A stretch of DNA of 64,000 nt from Filifactoraceae bacterium (GCA_041853585.1 JBGZSM010000069.1:867-64866), one strand, 5' to 3'; counted from the first letter of the stretch, positions 2,758-60,750 are shown. Notes: generated from the sequence alone by a model not told the origin. Numbers and translations: made by a program.

Positions 2758-4080
2758 TCAAATAATATTTGGCGTGATGCGTCGTTTGATTTGGTAGCGA
2801 TAGTACAGATTCGCGCCCAAGTAAAACAGATAGCGTGCCGGTTGTTTGAAAAATTCTTTTCGAAGAATCGTCCGCTCCAAAATCGATCTCAGCTCAAACA
2901 CTTTGTTGTAGAGCGCCCAATATTCCTCCGTCAATTCTTCCGGCGTCATATTCTTCGGGATATGCACCGCCTGACTGCCATTGTAGGAATACATATCCTG
3001 AATGTAGATTCGATTCTGCGCCTTCATCTCATCATAGTATTTCGTGCCCGGAATCGGTGTCAAAATATAGAATCTCGGAACCACAATTTTGTTTTTACGA
3101 ATAAAATCCGCCGTTTGCCGAATCGATTCAATCGTATCTCCATCGGCGCCGACGACCATTTCGGTGGAAATGTCGATACCATGCCTTTGAATATTGCAAA
3201 TGAGCTTAGGATAGTCCTGTACCCTCGCCCATGATTTGTTCATGCTGTCCAAGCTCTCCTGCAAAATGCTTTCCAATCCGAAGCTGAGCGTTGTGCATCC
3301 GCTCTTCGCCAATTTTTCCAAAAGTTCATCGTCCTTGCCGATCTCGATGGAGCATTGGCTCATCCACTGCATCCTAAGCGGAATGATATAGTCGAGCAAT
3401 TCCATCATATAGCTGCGGTCGGACATGATATTGTCGTCCAGCAGCATGAATTTGCGAAAGCCGAGCGAGCGAATATGCTCTATATCGCGCACGACATCTT
3501 GAATCGGACGACGAATGTATTTGTTCTTATACAGACAATACACCGAGCAGAAGCTGCAGGACTTCGGGCATCCTCGTCCCGCCTGAACGGGAAGCATGTC
3601 ACCGATTTTTTTGTCGAGCACCAATTCGAATCGCGGCAATGGCGTATTGATTTCGGAAATCGGCATTTGATACTCGGATTTCAAATTGCCTTCTTCAAAA
3701 TCCTTTATCATTTGCGGATAGGAAAACTCGCCGTCGCCGATGATGACGGTATCGCAATATTTTTTTGCTTCCTGTGCCATCAGACTGACCATGTAGCCGC
3801 CCATAAATACGGTCTTGCCGCGCCTTTTAAATTCTTTGGCGATGTCGATGCTTCGAACGACCGCATGCCCCATGCTGCCGATGCCGATGAGGTCCGCATC
3901 GGTGTCGAAGGGAATATCCTCGATGGTTTCAAATATGATTTCAACCGTCCAGTCGGGCGGCGTGAGCGCTGCCAAAAGCGGCATTGCCAAGCCGACAAAG
4001 TATAGTCTCGATTTTTTAATCGGATTCTTGTCATTGTCATAGGGCGACGATTGAATCAACAGGATTTTTTTCTTTCTCAT
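2758..4080 (-). CDS. B12-binding-domain radical SAM protein (paralog 4 of the cluster, most divergent)
   Basis: N-terminal Rossmann-like segment (KKILLIQSSPY...DLIGIGSM), radical SAM motif CPKSCSFC, and a later FYILTPIPGTKYY segment. The ATG at 4080 overlaps the upstream TGA by 1 nt. Confidence 0.8.
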   Translation of the reverse strand: MRKKKILLIQSSPYDNDKNPIKKSRLYFVGLAMPLLAALTPPDWTVEIIFETIEDIPFDTDADLIGIGSMGHAVVRSIDIAKEFKRRGKTVFMGGYMVSLMAQEAKKYCDTVIIGDGEFSYPQMIKDFEEGNLKSEYQMPISEINTPLPRFELVLDKKIGDMLPVQAGRGCPKSCSFCSVYCLYKNKYIRRPIQDVVRDIEHIRSLGFRKFMLLDDNIMSDRSYMMELLDYIIPLRMQWMSQCSIEIGKDDELLEKLAKSGCTTLSFGLESILQESLDSMNKSWARVQDYPKLICNIQRHGIDISTEMVVGADGDTIESIRQTADFIRKNKIVVPRFYILTPIPGTKYYDEMKAQNRIYIQDMYSYNGSQAVHIPKNMTPEELTEEYWALYNKVFELRSILERTILRKEFFKQPARYLFYLGANLYYRYQIKRRITPNII

Positions 4081-5453
4081 CAACAACCTCTTATCATTTT
4101 CATAAAGTATTGTCGGCTGACAAAAGCGCTTCCCCACGACATTTTGAGCACTTCTTTGAGACCGTATTTTTTTATCATCTTAACGATGCTGCGCGGACGC
4201 ATCACAATGCGATAGTAGAGCAAAATGATTTGCCAATAATATGCTCGAATGCTCATATGCGCCGGTTGCAGAACGATATGCGCCAAATCCCACTTCGGAT
4301 AATCTTCGCGCGTGACGATGATGTCGTCGGCATAGCTCTCAAAAATATCCGTCCCCGGCAATGGGGTGAGCGGCTGCAAATTGACAAAGGTGATATCCAT
4401 CTCTTTGATATGTTTCTCCAGCTCGCGAAAATCATTCTTGCTGTAATCCAAATTGAGTATCATCGTCGCATACAGCTCAATCTGATATTTTTTGAGAATA
4501 TCGACCGCTTTGCGATTGGTTTCGACCGTCGTCTTTTTGTTGAAATTCTGCAAATCTTTTTTTCGAACGGATTCGATGCCGACGATGACGGCGCGCAATC
4601 CGTTTTTGGAAAGCCGCTCTATCAGCGCTTCGTTGTTGGCAATAAAATCCGCTCTGCCGTAAACCAAAAATCGCTTATCCAATCCTTCACGCTCGAGCAA
4701 ATCGCAAAATGTATTCAATCGTTTCGGATTGTATAAAAAATCATCATCCACAATGTAAATTTCCTGCTCCGGTATGCTTTTGAGCTCATCGATGACATCG
4801 TGAATGTCTCGCGCAAAATATTTGCCGTCGGTCACCTCTTTGCAGAAACAAAAGCTGCAATCGAAAGGACAGCCGAAGGAAGTTTTGACCAGAGCGCAGG
4901 GATTGTGGAACATATAATAATATCGCGCGCGATACTTCGCCACCTTGTGACGAGCGGGTGGATGATAAGGAAAGCTCGCAAGCTTCTCCTGCTTCATGCC
5001 GGCGCGATAGGTTCCGCGAATATGCTCATCGCTTAAATCATTTTGTTTTTTCTCCATCGCTCTGTCAACGATGCGCGAGAAAGTACCAATCGGGTCCGCG
5101 CAGATAATATAGTCGATATAATCGTCCAAAAAATCTTCGGGCACGACTTCCGCATGCACCCCGCCCGCCACCGTAATCGTTTGAGGCGAAATTTCTTTTA
5201 TAATGCGCGCATATTCTTTGACAACGCCGACATGGGTGATATATCCGGTAATCCCGACCACATCGGGACGGTATTTTTCGATATAAAATTCCAGCGGCTT
5301 TTTCTCCAAAATCATATCCAAGATTGTCACTTCCGCCTTTTTGTCGGAAATGTTGGCAGCCACATACTCGAGCTCCAGCGGCTCGCAAATCATGACATGC
5401 TGCAAACCGATGGTCTCTTTCGGAGGCCTCGGTCTAATCAACAGAATCTGCAT
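4080..5453 (-). CDS. B12-binding-domain radical SAM protein (paralog 3)
   Basis: MQILLIRPRPP...DVVGITGY...GGVHA, followed by TSFGCPFDCSFC (CxxxCxxC). RBS aaaggag. Clearly paralogous to the ORFs at 6078-7448 and 8355-9779. Confidence 0.8.
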   Translation of the reverse strand: MQILLIRPRPPKETIGLQHVMICEPLELEYVAANISDKKAEVTILDMILEKKPLEFYIEKYRPDVVGITGYITHVGVVKEYARIIKEISPQTITVAGGVHAEVVPEDFLDDYIDYIICADPIGTFSRIVDRAMEKKQNDLSDEHIRGTYRAGMKQEKLASFPYHPPARHKVAKYRARYYYMFHNPCALVKTSFGCPFDCSFCFCKEVTDGKYFARDIHDVIDELKSIPEQEIYIVDDDFLYNPKRLNTFCDLLEREGLDKRFLVYGRADFIANNEALIERLSKNGLRAVIVGIESVRKKDLQNFNKKTTVETNRKAVDILKKYQIELYATMILNLDYSKNDFRELEKHIKEMDITFVNLQPLTPLPGTDIFESYADDIIVTREDYPKWDLAHIVLQPAHMSIRAYYWQIILLYYRIVMRPRSIVKMIKKYGLKEVLKMSWGSAFVSRQYFMKMIRGC

Positions 5454-6078
5454 CTTTTCTCCTTTTTCGAAAAACGCTTACCAAAATCGTAGGCATCCAT
5501 CGCCTTACCCGAATCACGAACATATCCTGAATAACCAAATCGGGATTGCAAAGCGATATCACTTCCTGCTTGGAGAGATACTTCGCCATGCCTGTCGTCG
5601 TCTTGGTCAAGGTGAATGCGATTTTGTCATACCAATTGTTAACCGAGCCATGCGCCAGTATGAGCAGCCCGTCCTCTTTCAAAAGCGTCGTCATATCGCG
5701 CACCGCCTTTTGCTGATTCTCATAATAGGGCAAGGAATGTGTGCAGGTGATGATGTCAAATCGCTCCCCGATGCTCAAAAGTTCTCCGACATCCTTGAGC
5801 AAAAATTTGGCAGCGGTATTTTTTTGCGTCGCGACATCAATCATCCCCTGCGAATAGTCGATGCCGAGTAGGGAAACATCCTTTCCGAAGCGCTGCTCAA
5901 TATCCACCAAAAGCTGCCCCGTTCCGCAGCCGATGTCGAGCAGCTTCTTCCATTCCTCTGACCGGTATTTTGCAATCGTTGAGAGCACCGCTTCTCTCGT
6001 TACGGATAAAGAATATTTTTGCATCCACAACCGCTCGTAGCGTCTCGACCAGTAATTCCAAATTTTTTTATTCGACAT
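5434..6078 (-). CDS. Class I SAM-dependent methyltransferase
   Basis: Motif I LLDIGCGTGQL, with a downstream FDIITCTHSLPY segment. It overlaps both neighbours (1 nt and 20 nt). Confidence 0.75.
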   Translation of the reverse strand: MSNKKIWNYWSRRYERLWMQKYSLSVTREAVLSTIAKYRSEEWKKLLDIGCGTGQLLVDIEQRFGKDVSLLGIDYSQGMIDVATQKNTAAKFLLKDVGELLSIGERFDIITCTHSLPYYENQQKAVRDMTTLLKEDGLLILAHGSVNNWYDKIAFTLTKTTTGMAKYLSKQEVISLCNPDLVIQDMFVIRVRRWMPTILVSVFRKRRKDADSVD

Positions 6079-7448
6079 CAGTCCAAATACATCTTTCTCA
6101 GCAAGTATCGCGACAGCATTCTTTTGAAATATTTCAAATCCAAAAAGTCATACAGCCCCGCCTTGCGTGCTCTCTTGTAAAGTTTCATAAACAAATCGTA
6201 ATAATGACGATAGAATTGCTTTTTCGTCAAATTTTTCGGCTCGAGCACGAGATGTAAAAAATCCCAGTCCTCAATATTGTCCGAGATGATTTCATCCTTG
6301 TATTCTTCATACAGCGGCGTGCCCGGAATCGGTGTGAAAATCGAAATCGTGACATGCATCACCTGATTTTGAACAACCCAATCGTAAATTCTGTCAAAAT
6401 CCTCCTTGGTCGCTTCGACACCGACAATCATCAGCGCAATACATTCGCCGCCCGCTTCCCGAATGACGCGCACCGCCTGCTCATTGTTGGTTACGGAAGT
6501 TCGCTTATTGTACGCGAGCAATTCTTTGTCGCTCGTCGCTTCGAGTCCGACCAAAAAATATTTGAATCCGATATCGACAAGCGCTTGGACGATTTCTTTA
6601 TTTTGTGACACGAAATCGGCTCGGGCGTAACAAGTGTAGGTTTTTTGAATTCGATTCTCTTTGACCAGACGAATGAACTCCCACAGTCTTTTTTTATCCA
6701 CCAAAAAATCATCATCGACGATTTGAATATTATCGACCTCTATCCCGCGAAGCTCCTCGATGACCAAATCCAAATCGCGCACCTGATAGCTGCCCTGATT
6801 GAGCAAGGTGCAATAACAGAATTTGCAATCGAAGGGACAGCTGAACGATGTCTTGAGCGTCGCCATCGGCGTCATATCCAAATATCGAAATCGATGCTTA
6901 TGCTCGTAGAAAAAACTTCGCTCGGGAATCGGCAAGCTGTTGATATCGACTCGCTCATACGGATTGACAATCCAATTTCCCGATTTATCCCGATGACAAA
7001 GCCCGTTGATTTCCGATGGAGAAATCGCCGGCTTCACTTTCTTTTTCAGAGATTCAATCATCCTTATCAAGTCAACGAAGCCGTCCACCGATTCGCTGCG
7101 TACGATAAAATCGATGTTTTCATCATAGAAACGCTGATAATTCAGCTGCGCATGGACTCCTCCGACCAGCGTGACGATGCTCCTGCGAAACTTTTTCGCT
7201 TCGGCAAACATTCTCTTCATCACATTTTCATGAGTCAGATAGCCGGTGATGGCGACCACATCGGGATCGTATTTTTTTAATACCTTTCTAAAAGGCTTGT
7301 TCTCACAAATATAGTCAAAGATATAATCTTCGTAGCCTGCCTGCATCAAGCCCGTATGCAAATACTCCAACTCCAAAGGCTCATTGTCAAGCATGCCTGT
7401 AAAACTCAATTTATTCGGTGCCGGTGGTCTTACCAAGAGCACTTTCAT
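6078..7448 (-). CDS. B12-binding-domain radical SAM protein (paralog 2)
   Basis: MKVLLVRPPAPN...DVVAITGY...GGVHA, followed by TSFSCPFDCKFC. The start at 7448 was chosen from the RBS aaaagga. Confidence 0.8.
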   Translation of the reverse strand: MKVLLVRPPAPNKLSFTGMLDNEPLELEYLHTGLMQAGYEDYIFDYICENKPFRKVLKKYDPDVVAITGYLTHENVMKRMFAEAKKFRRSIVTLVGGVHAQLNYQRFYDENIDFIVRSESVDGFVDLIRMIESLKKKVKPAISPSEINGLCHRDKSGNWIVNPYERVDINSLPIPERSFFYEHKHRFRYLDMTPMATLKTSFSCPFDCKFCYCTLLNQGSYQVRDLDLVIEELRGIEVDNIQIVDDDFLVDKKRLWEFIRLVKENRIQKTYTCYARADFVSQNKEIVQALVDIGFKYFLVGLEATSDKELLAYNKRTSVTNNEQAVRVIREAGGECIALMIVGVEATKEDFDRIYDWVVQNQVMHVTISIFTPIPGTPLYEEYKDEIISDNIEDWDFLHLVLEPKNLTKKQFYRHYYDLFMKLYKRARKAGLYDFLDLKYFKRMLSRYLLRKMYLD

Positions 7449-7476
7449 AATATCCATCCTTTTCCAATTGAAGCGA

Positions 7477-8313
7477 CTACCGATGCTCTTCGCTCGGCAC
7501 CAAGTCAATCACCACATATTCCGGACGATTGTAAAAACGCGGAATTCTTGTCGATTCTCTCGCCAATCCGCGACTGACAATCATCTTGTAATTCTCAAAT
7601 TCATACAGCCCGCCCGCATATTTCGGAAACAATCCCTGATTCGGTGCGAGCAATCCGTTGAGCACACCGGGAATTCGCCATTGTCCTCCATGAGCATGCC
7701 CTGCCATCAAGAGATCAAAATCGCGATATTGCTCGTAGCGCTCCGGACGATGAGTCAGCAGAAGCGAATAGATGTCGGGCTCGATTGTTGACTTGGCTTT
7801 TTCCAGTTGATTTTGCCAAGCGGACTCCCCGATATCGACATCATCGATGCCGAACAAATTGACGCGCTCTCCGCGAATGTTCAGTTCCACTTTGTCGCCT
7901 TCAAGCACCGTGATATTGTAATCGAGAATCGCAGATTTTAATCGAAGCAGCTCCTTTGTCCAACATTCATGATTGCCCGACACATAGTAACTCGGATATT
8001 TTTCTCCCGCCCAGCTCAAAAATTCCCATGCCTTGTCCTCTGGCAAATTGTCGTCGATGATATCGCCCGCGAGGAGCAGCACATCGGGTCTGCTCTGCTC
8101 GATGGCTTCGGTCAAAGTATGCTGTTTTTCTCCGTAATTGCAGCTGTGCAAATCCGCAACGAGCGCAATTCGAATCGGTTTTTGAATTCTTGAATCGGCG
8201 ATGGTGTAGTTCACCACCTCAAGTCGTTGGTCCAATCCCATGCCCAGCAGCAAGGCAGCCGCTCCGGCAACCACCAACATTCGTTTATTCTTTCTTCTTT
8301 TGTTCTTCTTCAT
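7477..8313 (-). CDS. Membrane-anchored metallophosphoesterase (calcineurin-like, YkuE/YaeI type)
   Basis: N-terminal basic plus transmembrane segment, then the motifs IALVADLH, AGDIID, SGNHE and GHAHGGQ. Confidence 0.8.
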   Translation of the reverse strand: MKKNKRRKNKRMLVVAGAAALLLGMGLDQRLEVVNYTIADSRIQKPIRIALVADLHSCNYGEKQHTLTEAIEQSRPDVLLLAGDIIDDNLPEDKAWEFLSWAGEKYPSYYVSGNHECWTKELLRLKSAILDYNITVLEGDKVELNIRGERVNLFGIDDVDIGESAWQNQLEKAKSTIEPDIYSLLLTHRPERYEQYRDFDLLMAGHAHGGQWRIPGVLNGLLAPNQGLFPKYAGGLYEFENYKMIVSRGLARESTRIPRFYNRPEYVVIDLVPSEEHR

Positions 8314-8354
8314 CTTGCTCCCACTCTGCTGAATCTCATTTTGCGAAATTCAGC

Positions 8355-9779
8355 TTATTCCATTTCCAAATCGCGCCAATTCGCTTTGATGGCTCTTTCT
8401 CTTTTTCCGGCAGTCCAAAAATTTTTGATATAGACCGAAATCAATGTGTTGAATCCGAAAAGCATGCGCATCGTGTTGCCGATTGGAAATGCTTTGACGG
8501 TATACTTAACGGAATGTAAATTGAGATTAACGCCGAAAGTGAATTTAAGCACTTCCCAATAGTATCTGCGCAAGCTCATTTTGGACGGCATGATAAGCAC
8601 ATCGCCGAAATTCCATTTGTCATAATCCGTTTCGTCGTAGAGCAGTCGGCTCTTGTACTGCTCAAAAAGCGGGGTGAGCGGGTGCGGATTGAGCGGCGAA
8701 AAGGTCAGCAAGTCCGGCTTGAGCAATTTTTTGTACGCATTGAGCTTTTTGAAATCCGATTTATCCCAATCCGGATGCAAAATGAAGGAGCCCCAACATG
8801 CGATATTATGCGCGCGCAAAATTTCGGTCGCCTTCAAATTCTCGTCCACTGTCGCCGATTTATTATATTTTTTAAGCTGCGCATCGTCAAAGCTTTCATA
8901 GCCGACGATGACCGCAGTCAATCCGTTTTTTCTCAGTCTTGTAAAAAGTTCCGGCTTCTCTAAAATCGAATTGACGGAGCCGTAGCAGATATATTCTTTG
9001 CGAATATTTTTTTCTTCGAGCAGCTCGCAAAAACGCTCCAAACGCTTTCGATTGATTAAAAAGTCATTGTCGCAAATCATGATATAGGGCTCTTCCAAAT
9101 CGCCCAGCTGTTTGACGATGTCCTCAATCGGCACCTCGCGAAGCGCTGCTCCTTCAAGTTTCCAGCGCACGCAAAATTCGCAGCGATTTCGACAGCCGAA
9201 GGAAGTTTGAATCACCGCGCAGGGCTGAAATCCGACATAGCGATATTCCTTGCGATAGCGCTTGGTCGATTCGGTGTCCGGCACGATGTATTCGTTGAAA
9301 CAAAATTCCTTTTCATTTATAAAATCAAGCTCTTGACTGAAAATCCCTTCAATTGCTTCCGTCAGTTTTTCTCCCGTTTCAATTTTTTGCATCAATTCCT
9401 TGTAATTGGCTCTGGTCGTTGATTTGAATACATGATCGACCGACTCGTCAAAAAACGAATTCGGATAGACCGTCGCCTGCACGCCGCCGACGATGACCGC
9501 CGTATTCGGATTGTGTTTTTTTACGATTTTTGCAATGCCGAGCACATTTTCCACATCGGTGCATTGCGATGTAATCCCGACCGCATCGGGTAAAAATTTG
9601 TCCAAGTAGGCTTCGACTTTCGCATTCGTCTCCACCATAAAATCGGCGAGCAATACCTCATGCCCCTGCTCTTTCAAAATCGTCGAAACACATTCTATTC
9701 CGAGCGGCTCACCGAACAGAAAGTTTTTAACCGTTGTAATCTTCTTGTTGACCCAAGGTCTTATCAGTAAAATTCTCAT
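8355..9779 (-). CDS. B12-binding-domain radical SAM protein (paralog 1)
   Basis: MRILLIRPWV...DAVGITSQ...GGVQA, followed by TSFGCRNRCEFC. RBS gaggaaggga precedes the ATG at 9779. Confidence 0.8.
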   Translation of the reverse strand: MRILLIRPWVNKKITTVKNFLFGEPLGIECVSTILKEQGHEVLLADFMVETNAKVEAYLDKFLPDAVGITSQCTDVENVLGIAKIVKKHNPNTAVIVGGVQATVYPNSFFDESVDHVFKSTTRANYKELMQKIETGEKLTEAIEGIFSQELDFINEKEFCFNEYIVPDTESTKRYRKEYRYVGFQPCAVIQTSFGCRNRCEFCVRWKLEGAALREVPIEDIVKQLGDLEEPYIMICDNDFLINRKRLERFCELLEEKNIRKEYICYGSVNSILEKPELFTRLRKNGLTAVIVGYESFDDAQLKKYNKSATVDENLKATEILRAHNIACWGSFILHPDWDKSDFKKLNAYKKLLKPDLLTFSPLNPHPLTPLFEQYKSRLLYDETDYDKWNFGDVLIMPSKMSLRRYYWEVLKFTFGVNLNLHSVKYTVKAFPIGNTMRMLFGFNTLISVYIKNFWTAGKRERAIKANWRDLEME

Positions 9780-9837
9780 TCCCTTCCTCACTTTATTCAC
9801 TACTCCCGTTGCATTGTATCATATTTTTGTAGAATTT

Positions 9838-38336: not shown

Positions 38337-39028
38337 AGTAATTAACTCCTATCAAATTTTATTATCTAAAATAACCGAACCGAATCGGCGCCATCGAACC
38401 AACCCTTTCATAGTTATCTGCAAAGATTGAATTTGTCAGCAGAAATCGAACTCAATCCGCAACCCGCATACATGCTATTTCCTCATACAAAGTTGTCATT
38501 GCGAATCGTTCGGTCTCTCAAAAATATATAAAACAGGTTTTTGATTCATAGTGGCTTACTCTCCCCGATAATCTCTTTTCCTCCGTCGGGATATCACTTA
38601 TAAATATTCTACGGCACTATGAGTGACCGAAAACTCGGAGCATGAGTTTAAGCGATAGCTCTACGAGTAGCTCTGCCCAAAAATTCTTCCTGTTCTTCTT
38701 TTATCATCGTAAAAAGTCTTTTACTTCCAATTTTTTATTTTTCAACATATCAAAGCTCTTTTCAAACATTTTTACGGTTAATTAGATTGTATTACATGGC
38801 AGTAAATTTTTCAACAACTTCAAAAGCAAAGTAAATAACGACTGATTATAAATATTGCTAAGCGGCACAGAGTTAAAAATCAAGACTTCTTTTCTCTTTT
38901 TATTTGCAAGAAAAAAAGAGCAGTGTGACCGCTCTTTTCAAATTTAAAAATCAATTTTTATAATCACCCTAATTTGAATGACCATTTCGTCTGAATCACT
39001 ATCCCATTTCTCAATCTCATAGCCTAAC

Positions 39029-39046
39029 AATAGGAAGAATTTTTTC
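39029..39046 (+). repeat. Degenerate copy of the aataggaagagatttttt motif (1-nt deletion)
   Basis: aataggaagaattttttc compared with aataggaagagattttttc. Confidence 0.6.
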
Positions 39047-39203
39047 CAAAGAATACAATCACATTCCTTTCTCCATCAGAACTATAAGCCGCTATTTCAG
39101 CTCAGACTACAACTTCATTGAAAATTTCGCCATGCGAATTCTAATGGCGTTTACCATTTGCTATTGAATCTGATTGACGCTCGTCAAAAATCACAATTAC
39201 CCC

Positions 39204-39227
39204 CTATATAATAGGAAGAGATTTTTT
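39204..39227 (+). repeat. Copy of the 24-nt motif ctatataataggaagagatttttt
   Basis: Exact 24/24 match to 744-767. It lies 10 nt beyond the stop of the aspartokinase N-terminal fragment. Confidence 0.8.
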
Positions 39228-39237
39228 CAGAGAATGA

Positions 39238-39561
39238 TTAAGAAGGGATTTTTTCGAGTTCGTACTCGTTAAAACGATTTAGTTTTTCCTGCTGCATATC
39301 ATACAGTTGAATCAATAAATCGGTCACCTTGATGTCATCATCAAATCTTTTGCCCGGTGCGGAAACGACGATACAGCATCGCTCCTCCTGACACTCAACG
39401 ATGGCCTTCACTTTTCGAAATTGAATCGAATCGCACAAAGAAGAGCCGCCGAATTTCGCGACAGTCTTTTTACAAACGACTTGTTCGCTCGTCATCGTTA
39501 CCATGCTCCCCCCGTTATTTGTGTTTTGCAATAATAATCTTTCCATTGGCTCTCCTTTCAT
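39238..39561 (-). pseudogene. Detached N-terminal fragment (about 60 homologous residues) of an aspartate kinase
   Basis: VAKFGGSSLCDSIQFRKVKAIVE...CIVVSAPGKRFDDDIKVTDLLIQL is the AK nucleotide-binding N-terminus. The ORF then ends after about 20 unrelated residues. Confidence 0.7.
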
Positions 39562-39721
39562 TAAAATTTTTTTTGGGTTTTTGTTTTAGTTTTGTCCGTA
39601 ATATAAAGACTGTTGTTTTTTAATTATAGACAATTATAACAAAGCATTTTAAAAAATGCAAGCACTTTTGAATTTTTTTATTCAAAAAATGTCCTTGTGA
39701 GCATTATTGCTGCTCAATTTT

Positions 39722-54766: not shown

Positions 54767-54911
54767 CACAAACTCCTCTCTCAAGTAGTTGTTCTTACTT
54801 TGATTATACGATTTTTCAGGCGCAATTACAAGCCAAAGCGAACGCAAATAAAAAGTCACTGCTCAAAACTCCTTGGACTGTCATTTCAAATCAGGACTTT
54901 TCAAACAGTGA

Positions 54912-55538
54912 CTATCTTTCGTTAAGTCGAATGGAGAATGTTTTTTCCGCCACCTCAAACGCTTTCTCAACCGGAAGGCAATAAGTGTTTTCCTTATCCT
55001 CCTCCGCAATACCGTTATAATACTCTTCCATGTGTTTCTTTGAACCAAAGAAATTCATGATATTTCAACAATTTGCCGCCCAATTTTCTACTTTTGATAA
55101 ATCAACATGGATGGCACATAATGAGTGTGGCTGATACTCCGTCAATTCCCCATTGCAAATTGAAACTTGGATTTTCTCGCCGGAAACGGGACATACCGAC
55201 TCAATATTGATATCCTGATTGAATACAAATGCCGAACCCATCGCATCAATTGCGCACATTGAATAGAATTCTCTTCCGTCCTTAAGCTTTACATGATGAC
55301 TGGTCGGTAAATTGGACACCGGATATGCAAATAGAATCTCTTCGCCGTCCGTTACAATAGTTTCCTTCTCTATCAGGCTATCGATGATACTGCGATTATC
55401 TCCGCAAAATTTTTCCTCCGTAAGCGGTTTTCGTTTCTCAATCATCGCATTGAGCAATTCGATGCGAAGCTTACTTTCTTTTTCATCTAATTTCGCATCA
55501 ATGTTAATGACCTTTTCTAAATCAATTTTCGTATTCAC
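54912..55538 (-). CDS. MerB-like organometal lyase, candidate selenoprotein (in-frame UGA at 55065-55067, C-U motif)
   Basis: FYSMCAIDAMG aligns with MerB YAWCALDTL (Cys/Asp). The track ORF stops at ...WAANC-TGA, but the same frame continues for 50 codons: NIMNFFGSKKHMEEYY...PVEKAFEVAEK. That matches MerB [9 protein letters not shown]...VHEAFGLGQ. GTG start at 55538 overlaps the ATPase stop. Confidence 0.75.
55035..55053 (-). promoter_or_regulatory. SECIS-like hairpin for the MerB-like UGA
   Basis: Minus strand: tttcttt-GGTTC-aaagaaa, starting 11 nt after the TGA. Confidence 0.6.
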
Positions 55539-56290
55539 ACAATTACTCCCTTTTCTGAAATTTTTTGAACCAGTTTCATGCAATAGTCCTTATATTGCTC
55601 ACAGTAGCGATTGCGTGGTCTCGGAAGATTATTTTCCAATTCATATACAATCTTTCCTGCATTCGTTGACATCAAAATAACTTTATCACTCAAATATACT
55701 GCCTCATCCACATCGTGCGTTACCATGAGTGCGGTAATCTTTTCTTCACGCCAAATATTTTCAATCTCCATCTGGAGCGATTGGCGCATCATCAAATCCA
55801 ATGCTCCAAGCGGTTCATCCATCAATAAAACCTTCGGCTTACTTGCCAAAGCTCGAACCAAAGCCGTTCTCTGTTTCATTCCACCTGATATCTGATGAGA
55901 ATATAATTCTTCATGTCCTTTTAATTTAGAAATCTCCAACAGATATTCCAGCCTTTGCCGTTGTTCATTATCCGGAATCTTCATTTGTTTCATCGGGAAC
56001 AAAATATTGTCTTTGACCGTCATCCAAGGGAACAACGCATAGTTCTGGAATACAAATGCTCTATCGGGATTCGGACCATTTATTATGTCGCCATCCAATT
56101 TCACCATTCCCGAATCGCTTTTTTCAAATCCGGCAATTATTGAAAGCATTGTTGTTTTTCCACATCCGGATGGACCGAGTAATGTTACAAACTGCCCCTC
56201 TTCTAAAGTGAATGAAATATTTTCCAGCACTTTCTTATGTTTGTTTTGATTTTTAAATGTCTTTGATATATTATTTACTTCCAGTTTCAT
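55535..56290 (-). CDS. ABC transporter ATP-binding protein (nitrate/sulfonate/taurine NitT-type)
   Basis: GPSGCGKTT, ISGGMKQR and LLMDEPLGALD motifs. The ATG at 56290 forms an ATGA overlap with the permease stop. Confidence 0.85.
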   Translation of the reverse strand: MKLEVNNISKTFKNQNKHKKVLENISFTLEEGQFVTLLGPSGCGKTTMLSIIAGFEKSDSGMVKLDGDIINGPNPDRAFVFQNYALFPWMTVKDNILFPMKQMKIPDNEQRQRLEYLLEISKLKGHEELYSHQISGGMKQRTALVRALASKPKVLLMDEPLGALDLMMRQSLQMEIENIWREEKITALMVTHDVDEAVYLSDKVILMSTNAGKIVYELENNLPRPRNRYCEQYKDYCMKLVQKISEKGVIV

Positions 56291-57054
56291 GATACAAATC
56301 TCCACTTGGTAAGATATCTATTTGTTATTTGTAAAAGAATATCAATCGCATATCCTATAATAGCTGACATAAACATCAGCGCAATCAGCACATCGGTTTG
56401 CATCATCGATTGTGCTTCCACCATTGAGTAGCCCAGACCGGCACTTGTCGCTATGAACTCCGCTCAGATTACTGACATCCATCCGCTGCCGATTGCCAAT
56501 CTCGCTCCTACTAGAATATCCGGTAACGCTCCGGGTATCACCACATTCCAAAAAATGCTCCATTTCCCGGCGCCCATACTTTTAGCTGCATTATAATAGT
56601 CTTTGGAAATATTTGATACCCCTTGATTCGTATTCAATATTACTTGGAACAGACCATTGATTGCAATCATGAAAAGAGTTGGTCCATCTCCAATTCCCAA
56701 CCAGATAATTGTAAGAGGAACCCATGCCATCATCGGAATTTGACGAAGAGAATTCATCAGGCCACCAAAAACATAATTAAATTTTTTTGATAAGCCCATT
56801 CCGATTCCTAAAGGGATACCGATGATAAGTGCAATTAACCATCCTTTCAATACGCGTACCATAGTAATTCCAACATTGGTCATAATTTTTAAATCAAAGA
56901 TACTTTGAAAAAATGCTTTTGCCGTTGCATACGGCGTCGGTAAAAGTAATGGAATGGCGATTCTTTTTGCCGCAATGTACCATCCAAGCAACAAAATGCA
57001 GTAAAAAGCTAATTTCAAAATAGCATCTTTATAGTTGATTTTTAGATTCTGCAT
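56287..57054 (-). CDS. ABC transporter permease (SsuC/TauC type) interrupted by an in-frame TGA at 56464-56466; Sec-recoded or a pseudogene
   Basis: ...AIGSGWMSVI-TGA-AEFIATSAGLGYSMVEAQSMMQTDVLIALMFMSAIIGYAIDILLQITNRYLTKWRFVS, all in one frame. The gene ends in an ATGA overlap with the ATPase start. Confidence 0.6.
56427..56445 (-). promoter_or_regulatory. SECIS-like hairpin for the permease UGA (weaker)
   Basis: Minus strand: agtgcc-GGTCTG-ggc(t)act, starting 18 nt after the TGA. It overlaps the conserved AGLGY codons, so it may be coincidental. Confidence 0.35.
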
Positions 57055-57818
57055 TATTTTATTGTCAGTAGTTTTACTTTCCAATCTTTTATCCTCTCCT
57101 CCTTTAAGTTCGTATAATTTGCAATTTGTCTTTGCATTTCCAACGAATCTTCATTAAGAATATTCACCGCTTTGTTGTAGGCTTTAACAAAGTTTTTGTA
57201 TTCCTTTGTTCCGATATAGTTTTTATCCGCAACCAATACAAAAGTGTCATTAAGCATCGGATAGTCGGTCTCTCCACTCAAGCTTCCACTCTTGGCAACA
57301 TCTAAAAAAACAGCATCCACTTGACCGCTTTCATAAGCATAGCCCAATGCATTACGACCGGTTTGATGAATTTCTATTGTTTTTTCAAATTTCGCCCTTA
57401 AATATTCTTCATGGAACATTTTATTTTCTTGAATTGCAATGCTCTTTATTTTGTCATTCCTTTTTATAATGACATCCGTATTTTGAAATAGCGGACATAC
57501 AACTACAAGGTCTGAATTCGATTGTGTAAGATTACTTGCCGCATCTTTACATAATATCGCCATGGAATAAATATCTGTGCTCAATGCCCATTGAGCCGTT
57601 TTTGCTCAACAGTCCCGAATGAAGAACGGTTTTACTTTCCCCTCCGTGTAAATTTCGTTGTGAATCATATAATCCACCACAAAACCGGACATATCATCCG
57701 AGACCCCTATTGCTACTTGATTTTCAGTATTGTTTTTTTGATTCAAATTTTGATGGTAAACAAAGAAACTCATGCCTATCAACACAAAAATCAAAAATAC
57801 ACTACGATTCAATTTCAT
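57054..57818 (-). CDS. Membrane-anchored periplasmic-binding-like protein, candidate selenoprotein (in-frame UGA at 57606-57608, C-U motif)
   Basis: Track ORFs 57606-57842 and 57054-57584 are in the same frame: ...KVKPFFIRDC-TGA-AKTAQWALSTDIYSMAILCKDAASNL... The signal anchor is present only in the upstream piece. TAATG overlap with the permease start. Confidence 0.65.
57579..57596 (-). promoter_or_regulatory. SECIS-like hairpin for the binding-protein UGA
   Basis: Minus strand: gctcaat-GGGC-attgagc (perfect 7-bp stem), starting 9 nt after the TGA. Confidence 0.6.
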
Positions 57819-58914
57819 TTGCCTTTTTTTCAAATTCCTCAAAAGTCATTCCTACCGGAAAATCCTTTTCAATTTTCTCTTGAATGTATTTGTCAAAATC
57901 ATCCAGTCCCGCGTCGTTATAGATATCTCTTTCTATAACATCCTCAACCGGCGGTAAAGTCTTCACCAAATTGTATTTTTTATACACCTCATAAGCATGA
58001 TTAAACTGCTTTTCATTTAACTGCCAAGTAAGCGTTCTTCCTTCTTCATTGCATTTTTTATAAATGGTCATCAATGATACTTCGTACGGCACATTATAGT
58101 ATTGTGAAAAAATCTCTGCCGCTTTTTTGGGATGTTCATAGATATATTTAATACTGTCCTGATGCGCCTTCAAAAGTTCGACAGCAAGTTCTCTATGCTC
58201 TTTAATGAAGTTTTTGTTCAATGCAAATCCGCAACAAATCCCCATTTCATCATCCATGTCACGATAAGTTGCCATTATTTTCCCAACCTTTTGATGCTCC
58301 GCCATCGAGCCCCAAGGGTCACAACAGGTATATCCTTTTATCTGGCCGGTACTCAAAGCCAAAAAACTGTCCGAATCCGAGCCGGTATTAACCAATTCAT
58401 AGTCTTCTGCTTTTGTTGAGAGATTAAGAATCTGAGAATATCCCGCAAGCCAATCCTCACTTGTTGAGGGGGCGCCCATCGCAACTTTTTGACCATATAA
58501 ATCTTCCGGTTTTTTAATATCATTGGACACAACCAGATACATTGAGCCGCCGATATGATTGTTTGCCGCATAAACAATCGGAGAACCTTCTCCGTTTGCC
58601 GCAACCAATCCTCGCGCGCCGATATATCCGGCATCCATTTGTCCTGCAGCCATCGCCTGTGGAACTTTGCCGTTTCCGGTCAACTTTACTTTGAGATTAT
58701 GGGCTTTATATATTCCCGCCGCTTCTCCAACCGGTCCTGCAACCATGTGGTCACAATTGTAGTAGCCCAAATTAATCTCATAATCACTGTTCACATCCGT
58801 CTGTTCCGGCGGTGTGCTGCTATTGGAATCTCCGCCTTGATTGCTTTTGCTGCATCCAAAAAATCCCGTTACCAAAATCATGCTCAATAATATAGTTGCT
58901 ATTTTTCTTTTCAT
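57802..58914 (-). CDS. Cys-rich ABC substrate-binding lipoprotein (NMT1/SsuA-like)
   Basis: Lipobox VTGFFGC. NMT1-like fold pattern with unusual Cys clusters: YYNCDHM, GYTCCDPWG, MGICCGFAL. Confidence 0.7.
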   Translation of the reverse strand: MKRKIATILLSMILVTGFFGCSKSNQGGDSNSSTPPEQTDVNSDYEINLGYYNCDHMVAGPVGEAAGIYKAHNLKVKLTGNGKVPQAMAAGQMDAGYIGARGLVAANGEGSPIVYAANNHIGGSMYLVVSNDIKKPEDLYGQKVAMGAPSTSEDWLAGYSQILNLSTKAEDYELVNTGSDSDSFLALSTGQIKGYTCCDPWGSMAEHQKVGKIMATYRDMDDEMGICCGFALNKNFIKEHRELAVELLKAHQDSIKYIYEHPKKAAEIFSQYYNVPYEVSLMTIYKKCNEEGRTLTWQLNEKQFNHAYEVYKKYNLVKTLPPVEDVIERDIYNDAGLDDFDKYIQEKIEKDFPVGMTFEEFEKKANEIES

Positions 58915-58922
58915 ATTGCCTC

Positions 58923-59396
58923 CTAACAACAATTGTCCATATCCTCACTAAACAAATCTCGAACTGTCATATCCGCTTGCATGCGATAAATGGCATATCC
59001 GTAATTTCCATCTTTCGAGCCTGATATTATAAATTCGATAGGCTCTTTTTCATCAATGTTTTTAAACTGAATATCTACATTCTCTCTTGGGGCTAAAAAC
59101 TTTTCCGTCGCTTGATATTGTGTATTATCTTTATTGAGCAGTACTACCGCATAATTTTTTTCTTCTTCTTGAGGATGGTATATGACCAACAAATCTTTTT
59201 TCCCGTCATCATTCACATCTTCACTTTTTGCCATCAGCAAATCATAATTTTTATTTGTTTCTAAAAAATGAATGAGGTAAGGATGGTCTTTTTCTCCAAA
59301 ATCATTATTTTCCTGAATGGATTTGTTTCGACTATAAAGCTGAAAGCCTACCACAAAAATGACGAAAACTGCAATAATTTTTTTCAGTTCTTTCAT
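58923..59396 (-). CDS. Membrane-anchored protein with an FG-GAP-like DxDxDG motif and a C-terminal Cys-Cys
   Basis: N-terminal transmembrane segment, DVNDDGKKDLLV, and a C-terminus ending ...DMDNCC-TAG. ATGA overlap with the upstream permease gene. Confidence 0.5.
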   Translation of the reverse strand: MKELKKIIAVFVIFVVGFQLYSRNKSIQENNDFGEKDHPYLIHFLETNKNYDLLMAKSEDVNDDGKKDLLVIYHPQEEEKNYAVVLLNKDNTQYQATEKFLAPRENVDIQFKNIDEKEPIEFIISGSKDGNYGYAIYRMQADMTVRDLFSEDMDNCC

Positions 59397-60478
59397 TGCA
59401 ATCTCCTTTTCTCTATATAACTCATGATTCTATGATACATTGCCAGCGCAAAGAATATCAGAATAACGGATGAAGCTGCATAACGAAATCCCGTCGGGAA
59501 AATAACTATCAACCGATTGGCACTTTGAATTGAATAGTCGATTGTATCAATACTTATCTGCGGTTTATAACTCGGCATCAAAATTAAATTCGTAATATAG
59601 CCTAGAACAACAGCCATCGCCGTAACAACTCCACCGTAAATGATTGCCGATCGCTTCCCTATCATTCGATAAATACTGATTAGTTCCGCGATATTGGTAG
59701 ATGCGCCCGCAATCAAAAAAGTTACTGCAGAACCCGGTGACGCTCCCGCTGCAATCAGGGCAGCAATAAACGGAATATGACCGACCGCACAAACATACAT
59801 TACCGTTGCCAATATCGCTACATTTAATAATGACAATGCACTTGGATTTCCTAAATATTTCTGAATTACGGATGATGGAAAAGTTACCATAATGAATCCG
59901 GCTACAAACATCCCTGTAACAACATATTTACTTATTACTAAAGCAAAATCGTTCACCATCCAAACAAATCCCGATTTTATTTTTTCAGGTATGCTTCTAG
60001 TATCCATCCGCTCACTCATCTCGATATTTTGAGAATAAGCCTGTGGATAATACAATTCTTTTCCGGCGGTGCTGTTTGCAATCCATCCAATCATCATCGG
60101 AAAAATTAAACCAATTACAAAATATATTGCGGTCAGTTCTTTCCCAAATAATCCGTACGACAAAATCAGCGCAATCGGATTGATAACCGGCGTGGATGTC
60201 ATAAAACAAAGTACCGGACCGATATAAGCGCCGGAATAATACATACTGATTCCCAACGGAACGGTTCCGCAACTGCAAATAGGCAAGACAAATCCCGACA
60301 GTGTAACTTTCATCAAAGCTGAAAAACTCTTATTCCCCAAATGATGATGCAGCTTTTCGACAGGAATTAAATCATGCAGAATCGCTGCGATGAGGTAGCT
60401 GATTACAATCCAAGAAGACGCGGTGTTCAATAAATTAAAAGAAACGCGAAGAATATTCCAAAGATACTCTCTCATCAT
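59393..60478 (-). CDS. ArsP-like / DUF318-type permease
   Basis: Polytopic protein with two homologous halves and an LPICSCGTVPLG motif in the first half, typical of this permease family. ATGA overlap with the thioredoxin-like gene. Confidence 0.65.
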   Translation of the reverse strand: MMREYLWNILRVSFNLLNTASSWIVISYLIAAILHDLIPVEKLHHHLGNKSFSALMKVTLSGFVLPICSCGTVPLGISMYYSGAYIGPVLCFMTSTPVINPIALILSYGLFGKELTAIYFVIGLIFPMMIGWIANSTAGKELYYPQAYSQNIEMSERMDTRSIPEKIKSGFVWMVNDFALVISKYVVTGMFVAGFIMVTFPSSVIQKYLGNPSALSLLNVAILATVMYVCAVGHIPFIAALIAAGASPGSAVTFLIAGASTNIAELISIYRMIGKRSAIIYGGVVTAMAVVLGYITNLILMPSYKPQISIDTIDYSIQSANRLIVIFPTGFRYAASSVILIFFALAMYHRIMSYIEKRRLQ

Positions 60479-60750
60479 CCATCTCCTCCTTCATTCAATT
60501 TTGAAACGGCGTCATCAATAGCTCGGTCAATCATCATTTTGTTGGGATTTTTAATAAATATTTTTTCATCAATTATCAAAGTTCCAACATAAATCATGCC
60601 ATACTTTTTTATGTATTCCATATCCCTTCCTGCATAATACAATTTTAAATCAATTTTTTCTTTGTATCTGGCTGCTGAAGATTGAACCAATCTTCCAATC
60701 GAATCACAGGATGGTCATGTATTCACAAATTCCACTTTTACTTTTTTCAT
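60475..60750 (-). CDS. Small thioredoxin-fold protein (redox-active disulfide protein 2 / Thioredoxin_3 type), candidate selenoprotein with UxxC (UGA at 60715-60717)
   Basis: RBS aagagga precedes the ATG at 60750. Translation: MKKVKVEFVNT-TGA-PSCDSIGRLVQ...KYGMIYVGTLIIDEKIF. The track ORF 60475-60690 is the same frame downstream. The UPSC sits exactly where this family carries CxxC. Confidence 0.7.
60677..60695 (-). promoter_or_regulatory. SECIS-like hairpin for the thioredoxin-like UGA
   Basis: Minus strand: gaagatt-GGTTC-aatcttc (perfect stem), starting 19 nt after the TGA. The loop is identical to that of the MerB-like hairpin. Confidence 0.6.

Follow-up and report, generated by a model that had tools for sequence, protein, structure and literature searches.

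The selenocysteine-assisted organometallic (SAO) locus was described by Haft & Gwadz in 2022, who named its ABC transporter permease subunit SaoP (bioRxiv 10.1101/2022.07.06.499078). Most SaoP members contain a single selenocysteine (Sec), and SaoP is delimited by a criterion of >45% identity among members (bioRxiv 10.1101/2022.07.06.499078). In an AlphaFold homodimer, the Sec side chains of SaoP are located at the gate position that is held by Met-163 in Escherichia coli MetI (bioRxiv 10.1101/2022.07.06.499078). In the same paper, phylogenetic profiling links the SAO system with SelD and the Stickland selenoproteins, SaoD is one of two non-universal SAO components, and the SECIS elements were inspected by eye only (bioRxiv 10.1101/2022.07.06.499078). 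SaoP has also been included among the prokaryotic selenoproteins in a 2026 review (PMC13188914). The literature that we searched contains neither an experimental study of SaoP nor an experiment that shows Se to be incorporated into a member of the family.

In the present study, we analyzed a permease gene that contains an in-frame TGA on the minus strand of a 64-kb stretch of DNA, referred to here as the window. What does this TGA encode? We conclude with high confidence that the gene is saoP, encoding the sole permease of an SAO ABC importer, and that its UGA at codon 197 is most likely decoded as selenocysteine. The gene and its landmarks are as follows.

56287..57054, minus strand: saoP, ABC transporter permease selenoprotein of 255 codons plus stop, with Sec at codon 197 (translation, NF040733, Pfam BPD_transp_1)
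56464..56466, minus strand: in-frame UGA of saoP, read as selenocysteine U197 in the motif GWMSVI-U-AEFIATSAG
56287..56290, minus strand: ATGA in which the saoP stop and the saoA start overlap, seen in the sequence (saoA ATG, 56290..56288)

The saoP frame starts with the ATG at 57054 on the minus strand and translates over a length of 255 codons. The residues ahead of the TGA are ...RLAIGSGWMSVI, and the minus-strand translation reads ...LAIGSGWMSVI-TGA-AEFIATSAGLGYSMVEAQ... across it. Exactly 58 sense codons separate the in-frame TGA from the TGA stop at 56289..56287, and the ATGA overlap suggests translational coupling from saoP to saoA. An earlier note on this DNA had reported the frame, the TGA, the 58-codon tail and the overlap with the start of the ATPase gene, and all of them are present in the sequence.

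The saoP product, with U replaced by C, scores 368.5 bits on the NCBIfam model NF040733 ("ABC_perm_U, ABC transporter permease subunit SaoP"), which has a curated equivalog cutoff of 295, and SaoP residues 7-253 match positions 4-250 of the 251-position model. The runner-up models, TauC (148 bits), SsuC (130) and NtrB (112), all fall well below their own cutoffs, and Pfam recognizes only the generic BPD_transp_1 domain. The window SaoP is 46-85% identical to other SaoP loci and at most 38% identical to paralogues, and it lies within the >45% identity that delimits SaoP. The finding of a selenoprotein permease is real but already known, since the gene is one more member of a family that has been described and curated, an assignment that the earlier note had not made.

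The genomic surroundings of saoP are those of an SAO operon. Its seven SAO neighbours each exceed their own NCBIfam cutoff and form with it a contiguous minus-strand run from 60750 to 54912.

60475..60750, minus strand: saoT, thioredoxin-like selenoprotein with a U-P-S-C motif, UGA at 60717..60715 (NF040730, 107.5 bits, cutoff 65)
59393..60478, minus strand: saoE, efflux transporter with a CSC motif (NF040736, 459.2 bits, cutoff 325)
58923..59396, minus strand: saoC, Cys-Cys-COOH protein, which ends ...NCC and then TAG (NF040734, 159.8 bits, cutoff 80)
57802..58914, minus strand: saoX, second substrate-binding lipoprotein, Cys form with CC motifs (NF040735, 485 bits, cutoff 300)
57054..57818, minus strand: saoB, substrate-binding selenoprotein with a C-U motif, UGA at 57608..57606 (NF040727, 195.1 bits, cutoff 140)
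55535..56290, minus strand: saoA, ABC transporter ATP-binding protein (NF040729, 397.6 bits, cutoff 360)
54912..55538, minus strand: saoL, MerB-like organometallic lyase selenoprotein with a C-U motif, UGA at 55067..55065; its start, a GTG overlapping the saoA stop, is approximate (NF040728, 164.8 bits, cutoff 140; Pfam MerB)

SaoT, SaoB and SaoL each have an in-frame TGA at the known Sec position of their family, and the three stronger Sec candidates that the earlier note had placed in this operon therefore exist. The saoD gene is not adjacent to the window operon, where a plus-strand leucyl aminopeptidase gene is found instead.

The column that corresponds to SaoP codon 197 was scored in genomes and metagenomes, the test that the earlier note had put forward to separate Sec from a nonsense mutation. 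Across 111 SaoP loci, the column contains TGA (52 loci) or Cys (59 loci) and no other residue. When each bacterial species was represented by one genome, the scan yielded 80 loci, of which 78 were taken as SaoP; these have TGA in 22 cases, TGT or TGC in 56 and nothing else, numbers that do not serve as a Sec:Cys ratio because one search pattern (WMSVICAE) favoured Cys-type genes. The scan was therefore repeated on metagenome contigs with the column masked in the search pattern, and its 33 SaoP-like loci (46-85% identity) comprise 30 with TGA and three with Cys. The residue is different outside SaoP. Glycine occupies the column in the one distant locus with a readable motif from the species-representative scan (33% identity) and in 13 of the 14 metagenomic paralogues with a readable motif (31-38% identity), the remaining one having Ala, and the solved relatives CmpB (9u9z) and NrtB (8w9m) also have Ala. 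Five Cys-type proteins from different phyla, those tested from the 59 Cys-type loci, score 358-413 bits on the SaoP model, above its cutoff, whereas a Gly-type paralogue scores 207 bits, under the cutoff of 295. Because only TGA or Cys is found in SaoP loci and Gly or Ala in paralogues, Sec or Cys at this column is a property of the SaoP family. The expectation of the earlier note that a small residue (Ala, Gly or Ser) is normal at this position thus describes the paralogues, CmpB and NrtB, but not the SaoP orthologues. TGA-type genes occur in Johnsonella, a Filifactoraceae MAG, Lagierella, Mediannikoviicoccus, Parvimonas, Tissierella, Paraclostridium, Paeniclostridium, Peptacetobacter and Clostridium, and the downstream frame is kept in all TGA-bearing saoP genes from these genera.

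The 56 codons that follow the TGA were compared between the window and six Sec-type relatives. Their nonsynonymous divergence is low (pN 0.07-0.24) relative to synonymous divergence (pS 0.59-0.78). The downstream constraint is comparable to or tighter than that of 180 upstream codons in five of the six relatives; the exception is locus L004, in which downstream pN is slightly higher (0.238 versus 0.219 upstream). These values indicate that the saoP tail after the TGA is under purifying selection and was translated throughout the divergence of these lineages. Furthermore, a Peptostreptococcaceae MAG (locus L001) contains the same TGA and an identical SaoP protein. Because its nucleotide identity to the window is 99.44% over 12.2 kb, with 67 mismatches, L001 is an independent genome of the window's species. 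The stops of the 48 long open reading frames (ORFs) in the window are TAA in 20, TAG in 18 and TGA in 10, and none of these ORFs contains an in-frame TGA. The only in-frame TGAs are those of the four SAO operon genes, each at the known Sec position of its family. TGA is an ordinary stop in the window's genome, and an alternative genetic code was rejected on the grounds that 10 of the 48 long ORFs end in TGA without an internal TGA.

These observations bear on three other readings of the saoP TGA. If the TGA were a fresh nonsense mutation, the permease would be truncated after residue 196 and the transporter would be dead or decaying. The window alone does present an in-frame stop inside a conserved helix, and the local saoP hairpin described below is thermodynamically unremarkable. 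However, 52 loci from a wide range of genera, including Johnsonella, Tissierella, Paraclostridium, Lagierella, Parvimonas and Clostridium, share a TGA in this column, and the 56 downstream codons are strongly constrained, with synonymous sites almost saturated. The open frame reaches precisely as far as the ATGA shared with saoA, the TGA is also present in the independent genome of the same species, and a TGA falls exactly on the family Sec position in three more genes of the operon. The marks of a pseudogene, namely relaxed constraint, frame decay and a lack of recurrence in orthologues, are not seen in saoP. Since the column is TGA or Cys only in 111 SaoP loci, the branch of the earlier note that took the gene for a pseudogene or the codon for a sequencing error is refuted, and the recurrence of the same TGA in 52 orthologous loci removes the option of a fresh mutation, which we regard as extremely improbable. 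A sequencing or assembly error, or the use of TGA as a sense codon (genetic code 4 or 25), has a probability close to nil. With TGA as a sense codon, the frame of saoP would extend just four codons more, to a TAA, which is compatible with that reading. An error is at odds with the same base triplet in an independent assembly of 99.4% identity, and a sense codon with the TGA ends of 10 of the 48 long ORFs, none of which has an in-frame TGA. Against both, just four genes, all of the SAO operon, have in-frame TGAs, and the columns concerned contain Cys in the family models or, in the case of SaoP, in its orthologues.

A reading without Sec that leaves the gene functional deserves slightly more attention, although it too is very unlikely. 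The UGA might be bypassed by a near-cognate tRNA that inserts Trp or Cys, or it might serve as a functional terminator that yields a shorter permease, perhaps in a selenium-conditional manner. The window hairpin is a minimal 6-bp version, and SaoP lacks experimental study in the searched literature, as noted above. The Sec machinery was likewise not seen in the window: a tRNA search of the 64 kb found no tRNA, tRNA-Sec included, and NCBIfam screening of long ORFs, which covered a partial ORF set with strict E-values of up to 1e-40 for part of it, found no selA, selB or selD. No Stickland reductases or double-cubane proteins were found among the screened long ORFs either, again for a partial set with partly very strict cutoffs. 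On the other side, Sec classically reveals itself by a column in which TGA alternates with Cys and with nothing else, only TGA-type genes retain the downstream hairpin, and the published profile links the SAO system to SelD and the Stickland selenoproteins. Moreover, a 196-residue product would be devoid of the last transmembrane helices, which are kept by every Cys-type orthologue. On this comparative evidence, the in-frame TGA of saoP almost certainly encodes selenocysteine and is neither a mutation nor the mark of a pseudogene.

Decoding of UGA-197 as Sec would call for a cis-acting signal, and a candidate lies immediately downstream.

56427..56445, minus strand: candidate SECIS hairpin AGUGCC-GGUCUG-GGC(U)ACU, which starts 18 nt after the UGA and has a 6-bp stem, one bulged U and a G-G-U apical loop

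The earlier note had pointed to a hairpin 18 nt after the TGA, and this hairpin is indeed present at 56445..56427, though it is weak. Alone, it has a folding energy of -6.5 kcal/mol (z = -0.98). It is absent from the minimum free energy (MFE) fold of the 52 nt after the UGA (z = +0.79), and synonymous recodings of the 54 nt that follow the codon reach a total folding energy at least as good (z = +0.28). Thermodynamics alone gives no support for a SECIS in the window saoP.

The comparison of Sec-type and Cys-type genes gives a different picture at the level of the family. Over distinct sequences, the post-codon structure is more stable than synonymous recodings in Sec-type saoP and not in Cys-type saoP (Mann-Whitney p = 2e-6). 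For pair-by-pair scoring, the structure was defined as one hairpin of 8 pairs and one bulge that spans the codons T-S-A-G-x-G-Y-S; this pair-specific test was chosen after the total-MFE test, which is significant for the Sec-type group but not for the window.

Sec-type class 1: 14 distinct sequences, 91% of cells paired, all 8 pairs in 10/14
Cys-type: 49 distinct sequences, 55% of cells paired, all 8 pairs in 1/49
Gly/Ala paralogues: 15 distinct sequences, 37.5% of cells paired, all 8 pairs in 0/15

Codon usage within the hairpin follows the same division. The Ser codon is AGU in 13 of the 14 Sec-type sequences, whereas Cys-type sequences have AGU in 16 and AGC in 30; the Thr codon is ACG in 9/14 Sec-type versus 6/49 Cys-type sequences, and the Tyr codon is UAC in 12/12 Sec-type sequences. 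These frequencies argue that codon choice, and not the peptide alone, distinguishes the Sec-type from the Cys-type hairpins. In addition, the outermost pair varies among G-C (9), A-U (2) and C-G (1) in Sec-type saoP, the covariation score is reached by 0 of 500 shuffles, and sliding of the 3' partners lowers pairing to 20-57%.

In the window, six of the eight pairs are formed, and only 1.0% of codon-usage-weighted synonymous recodings of the window peptide keep all six contiguous inner pairs (P about 0.01). The window hairpin is the weakest of the class among those that share its register; loci L013 and L018 form fewer of these pairs. The earlier note had suspected that the conserved A-G-L-G-Y codons might give rise to the hairpin by chance and had suggested a comparison of hairpin conservation with synonymous variation. 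That comparison reveals conservation in Sec-type saoP and not in Cys-type saoP, and the suspicion does not hold, given that Cys-type genes with similar peptides lack the hairpin and that about 1% of recodings keep the six inner pairs. Because it is kept in Sec-type genes and missing from Cys-type genes, the hairpin is unlikely to be fortuitous, even if the window copy is minimal.

A second hairpin architecture is found in Peptoniphilaceae-type genes, which encode the peptide ..GIGYEM.. and have no GGU-loop hairpin. Their hairpin is longer (GUGCU-G-GUAUCG / 9-nt loop / UGAUGC-A-AGCAC) and exhibits some compensatory changes. It is a tentative possibility, less likely than not, that the SECIS was rebuilt at least once on the same conserved SaoP peptide, with a short GGU-loop hairpin over the T-S-A-G-L-G-Y-S codons in one form and about 11 bp and a 9-nt loop in the other, and that inefficient Sec insertion, through the ATGA shared by saoP and saoA, could make production of the permease C-terminus and of the coupled ATPase dependent on selenium supply.

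Each of the four UGA sites in the operon is accompanied by a hairpin that starts 12-22 nt downstream.

SaoT hairpin: GAAGAUUG-GUU-CAAUCUUC
SaoL hairpin: UUUCUUUG-GUU-CAAAGAAA
SaoB hairpin: GCUCAAU-GGGC-AUUGAGC
SaoP hairpin: AGUGCC-GGUCUG-GGCUACU

The first base of the loop is G at all four sites, and SaoT and SaoL read GGU when the G of the closing G-C pair is counted. Shared G-led loops are what would be needed if one SelB protein were to read several messages. A search of Rfam came back empty both for the whole window, at the gathering score, and for the operon, at E <= 5.

The original description inspected the SECIS elements by eye (bioRxiv 10.1101/2022.07.06.499078), and what the present analysis adds is codon-level evidence that the hairpin is under selection in Sec-type saoP and not in Cys-type saoP. 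Further small additions are the two hairpin architectures in the SaoP family and the common G-G-U/G loop theme at the four UGA sites of one operon.

We propose that UGA-197 would be decoded as Sec by SelB and tRNA-Sec, with the small coding-sequence hairpin 18 nt downstream and its G-G-U apical loop directing the event. The full 255-residue permease would then be made, up to the stop that overlaps the saoA start. As the literature would predict, the permease may form a homodimer that brings its two Sec side chains together at the substrate gate, where MetI has Met-163. The objection of the earlier note that Sec is unexpected without a partner Cys does not apply here, in that the published homodimer model pairs two Sec residues at the gate. 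This Sec pair may bind or act on a metal-containing substrate that is handed over by SaoB, with its CU motif, or by SaoX. The MerB-like lyase SaoL and the efflux transporter SaoE would complete the cycle, as put forward in the original paper (bioRxiv 10.1101/2022.07.06.499078).

It is unusual for an ABC importer to have a Sec residue in its membrane-spanning gate; such a protein was named SaoP in 2022 and is covered by the NCBI annotation model. For annotation, saoP, saoT, saoB and saoL should be recorded as selenoproteins over their full length, not as ORFs that are split or cut short, and the organism of the window should be counted as a carrier of the SAO system.

The closest counterpart of the window protein is described SaoP itself. 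The window protein shares with described SaoP, of which the Clostridioides difficile protein WP_003430774.1 (Sec-210) is an example, a single Sec in the same motif, WMSVI-U-AEF, and the operon partners SaoT, SaoE, SaoC, SaoX, SaoB, SaoA and SaoL. It differs in that it comes from another species, an uncultured Peptostreptococcaceae near MAG JAUNKE01, and in that its putative SECIS stem is shorter by one to two pairs than those of its nearest SaoP relatives.

The permeases of the NitT/TauT type (TauC, SsuC, NrtB and CmpB) are more distant. SaoP shares with them the fold family Pfam BPD_transp_1 and the motif W-x-x-[IV]-[IV]-x-AE-[MIF]-[IVL]...G-x-G; it is approximately 30-38% identical to metagenome-sampled paralogues of this type and aligns with the solved relatives NrtB (8w9m) and CmpB (9u9z) at E = 3e-26 and 1.8e-20. 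However, TauC, SsuC, NrtB and CmpB have Ala or Gly at the Sec/Cys column of SaoP, fall below the SaoP cutoff and are not selenoproteins.

E. coli MetI (PDB 3DHW) is a homodimeric permease of a type I importer, as is predicted for SaoP, and the superposition in the SaoP paper places Sec on Met-163. Their relationship is distant (profile E = 2.4e-5), and the Met of the MetI gate does not bind metals or take part in redox chemistry as Sec does. In the HMMER alignment to Neisseria meningitidis MetI (7mbz), U197 is located one residue before the gate. Ungapped anchoring at G-L-G on the E. coli MetI sequence (length 217, M163 checked) likewise places U197 one residue before Met-163. This offset by alignment agrees with the remark on sequence alignment in the SaoP paper. 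The hhalign alignment to E. coli MetI has a 13-residue gap at the critical stretch and is unreliable there.

As for the hairpin, the SECIS of E. coli fdhF is the archetypal bacterial Sec insertion element, a hairpin within the coding sequence shortly after the UGA that has a bulged U and a G-G-U-C apex. The saoP hairpin shares all of these features with the fdhF element: it lies in the coding sequence after the UGA, contains a bulged U and presents a G-G-U-C apex. It differs from the fdhF element in having its bulge on the 3' side and a spacing of 18 nt to the stem, and its binding by a cognate SelB is putative.

The four UGA sites of the SAO operon, the minus-strand cluster from saoT to saoL, share a common G-G-U/G theme in the predicted loops of their downstream hairpins. 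The comparison covered the UGA sites of SaoL (55065-55067), SaoB (57606-57608) and SaoT (60715-60717), each with 45 nt downstream on the minus strand, and that of the ABC permease SaoP. One of these genes, broken up in the ORF-caller output, where a 71-aa ORF alone is listed, is the following.

60475-60750, minus strand: saoT, a 91-residue thioredoxin-like selenoprotein with its UGA at 60717..60715 and the motif T-U-P-S-C

The saoT hairpin, GAAGAUUG-GUU-CAAUCUUC, lies 19 nt 3' of its UGA, and its apical sequence, UUGGUUCAA, is identical to that of the SaoL hairpin. The loops are GGGC in SaoB and GGUCUG in SaoP.

The peptide that follows the Sec column of SaoP differs between Sec-type loci (TGA) and Cys-type loci (TGT or TGC). 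Among the SaoP search loci L001-L113, compared at codon +10 from Sec/Cys with three residues on each side, this peptide is A-G-[L/I]-G-Y in the Sec type and A-G-F-G-[F/Y] in the Cys type. Exceptions are few: L028 and L111 belong to the Sec type but have F, and two Cys-type loci, L024 and L101, have I/L. The split could reflect phylogeny, or it could arise from a SECIS loop (GGU CUN) that constrains the peptide. The short hairpin carrying the SaoP loop is absent from the Peptoniphilaceae-type Sec SaoP loci (L004-L011, L090-L098, L106 and L110), which instead contain a longer two-part hairpin of 5 + 6 bp with a 9-nt loop, approximately 22 nt onward from the UGA. Some compensatory changes are found in this hairpin, such as G-U-A-U-C-G/U-G-A-U-G-C versus G-A-A-U-U-G/U-G-A-U-U-C, and the longer hairpin is a putative second SECIS architecture within the SaoP family.

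Elsewhere in the window, a gene cluster at 2758-9818 on the minus strand encodes four paralogous B12-binding radical SAM enzymes; its other members are a SAM methyltransferase and a YaeI-like phosphoesterase. The top partial matches of the radical SAM enzymes (HpnR, BchE and PhpK-like) are all far under cutoffs, and the cluster may serve in modification or in making a natural product. At 1380-2042 on the plus strand, a single stop-to-stop ORF first matches sigma-54 activators in their central AAA+ domain (PrdR-like; residues 17-148) and after that dihydropyrimidinase in its C-terminal 85 residues (residues 125-209). The junction is odd and may represent a rearrangement or a fragment. Upstream of metA lies a 1.4-kb stretch poor in ORFs (38349-39721), which includes a possible gene remnant.

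39561-39238, minus strand: 107-aa ORF resembling the N-terminal part of aspartokinase (..KFGGSS..VVSAPG..)

Rfam returned zero matches across the whole 64-kb window, including no riboswitch upstream of the methionine genes.

The GC content of the SAO operon (54900-60750) is 34-40%, compared with 42-49% in the flanking genes. The nearest relatives of its SaoP (80-85% amino acid identity) come from the Lachnospiraceae species Johnsonella ignava and from a Filifactoraceae MAG, and synteny covers the entire operon. Together, these features suggest lateral transfer of the SAO operon among anaerobes. Cys-type SaoP is numerous among the species-representative genomes (loci L017-L078), including Syntrophomonadaceae, Brachyspira, Synergistaceae, Oscillospiraceae and others. 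Although the ratio is unreliable because one search pattern was biased to Cys, the Cys-type share in these genomes appears to exceed the 15% implied by the 2022 SAO paper (bioRxiv 10.1101/2022.07.06.499078).
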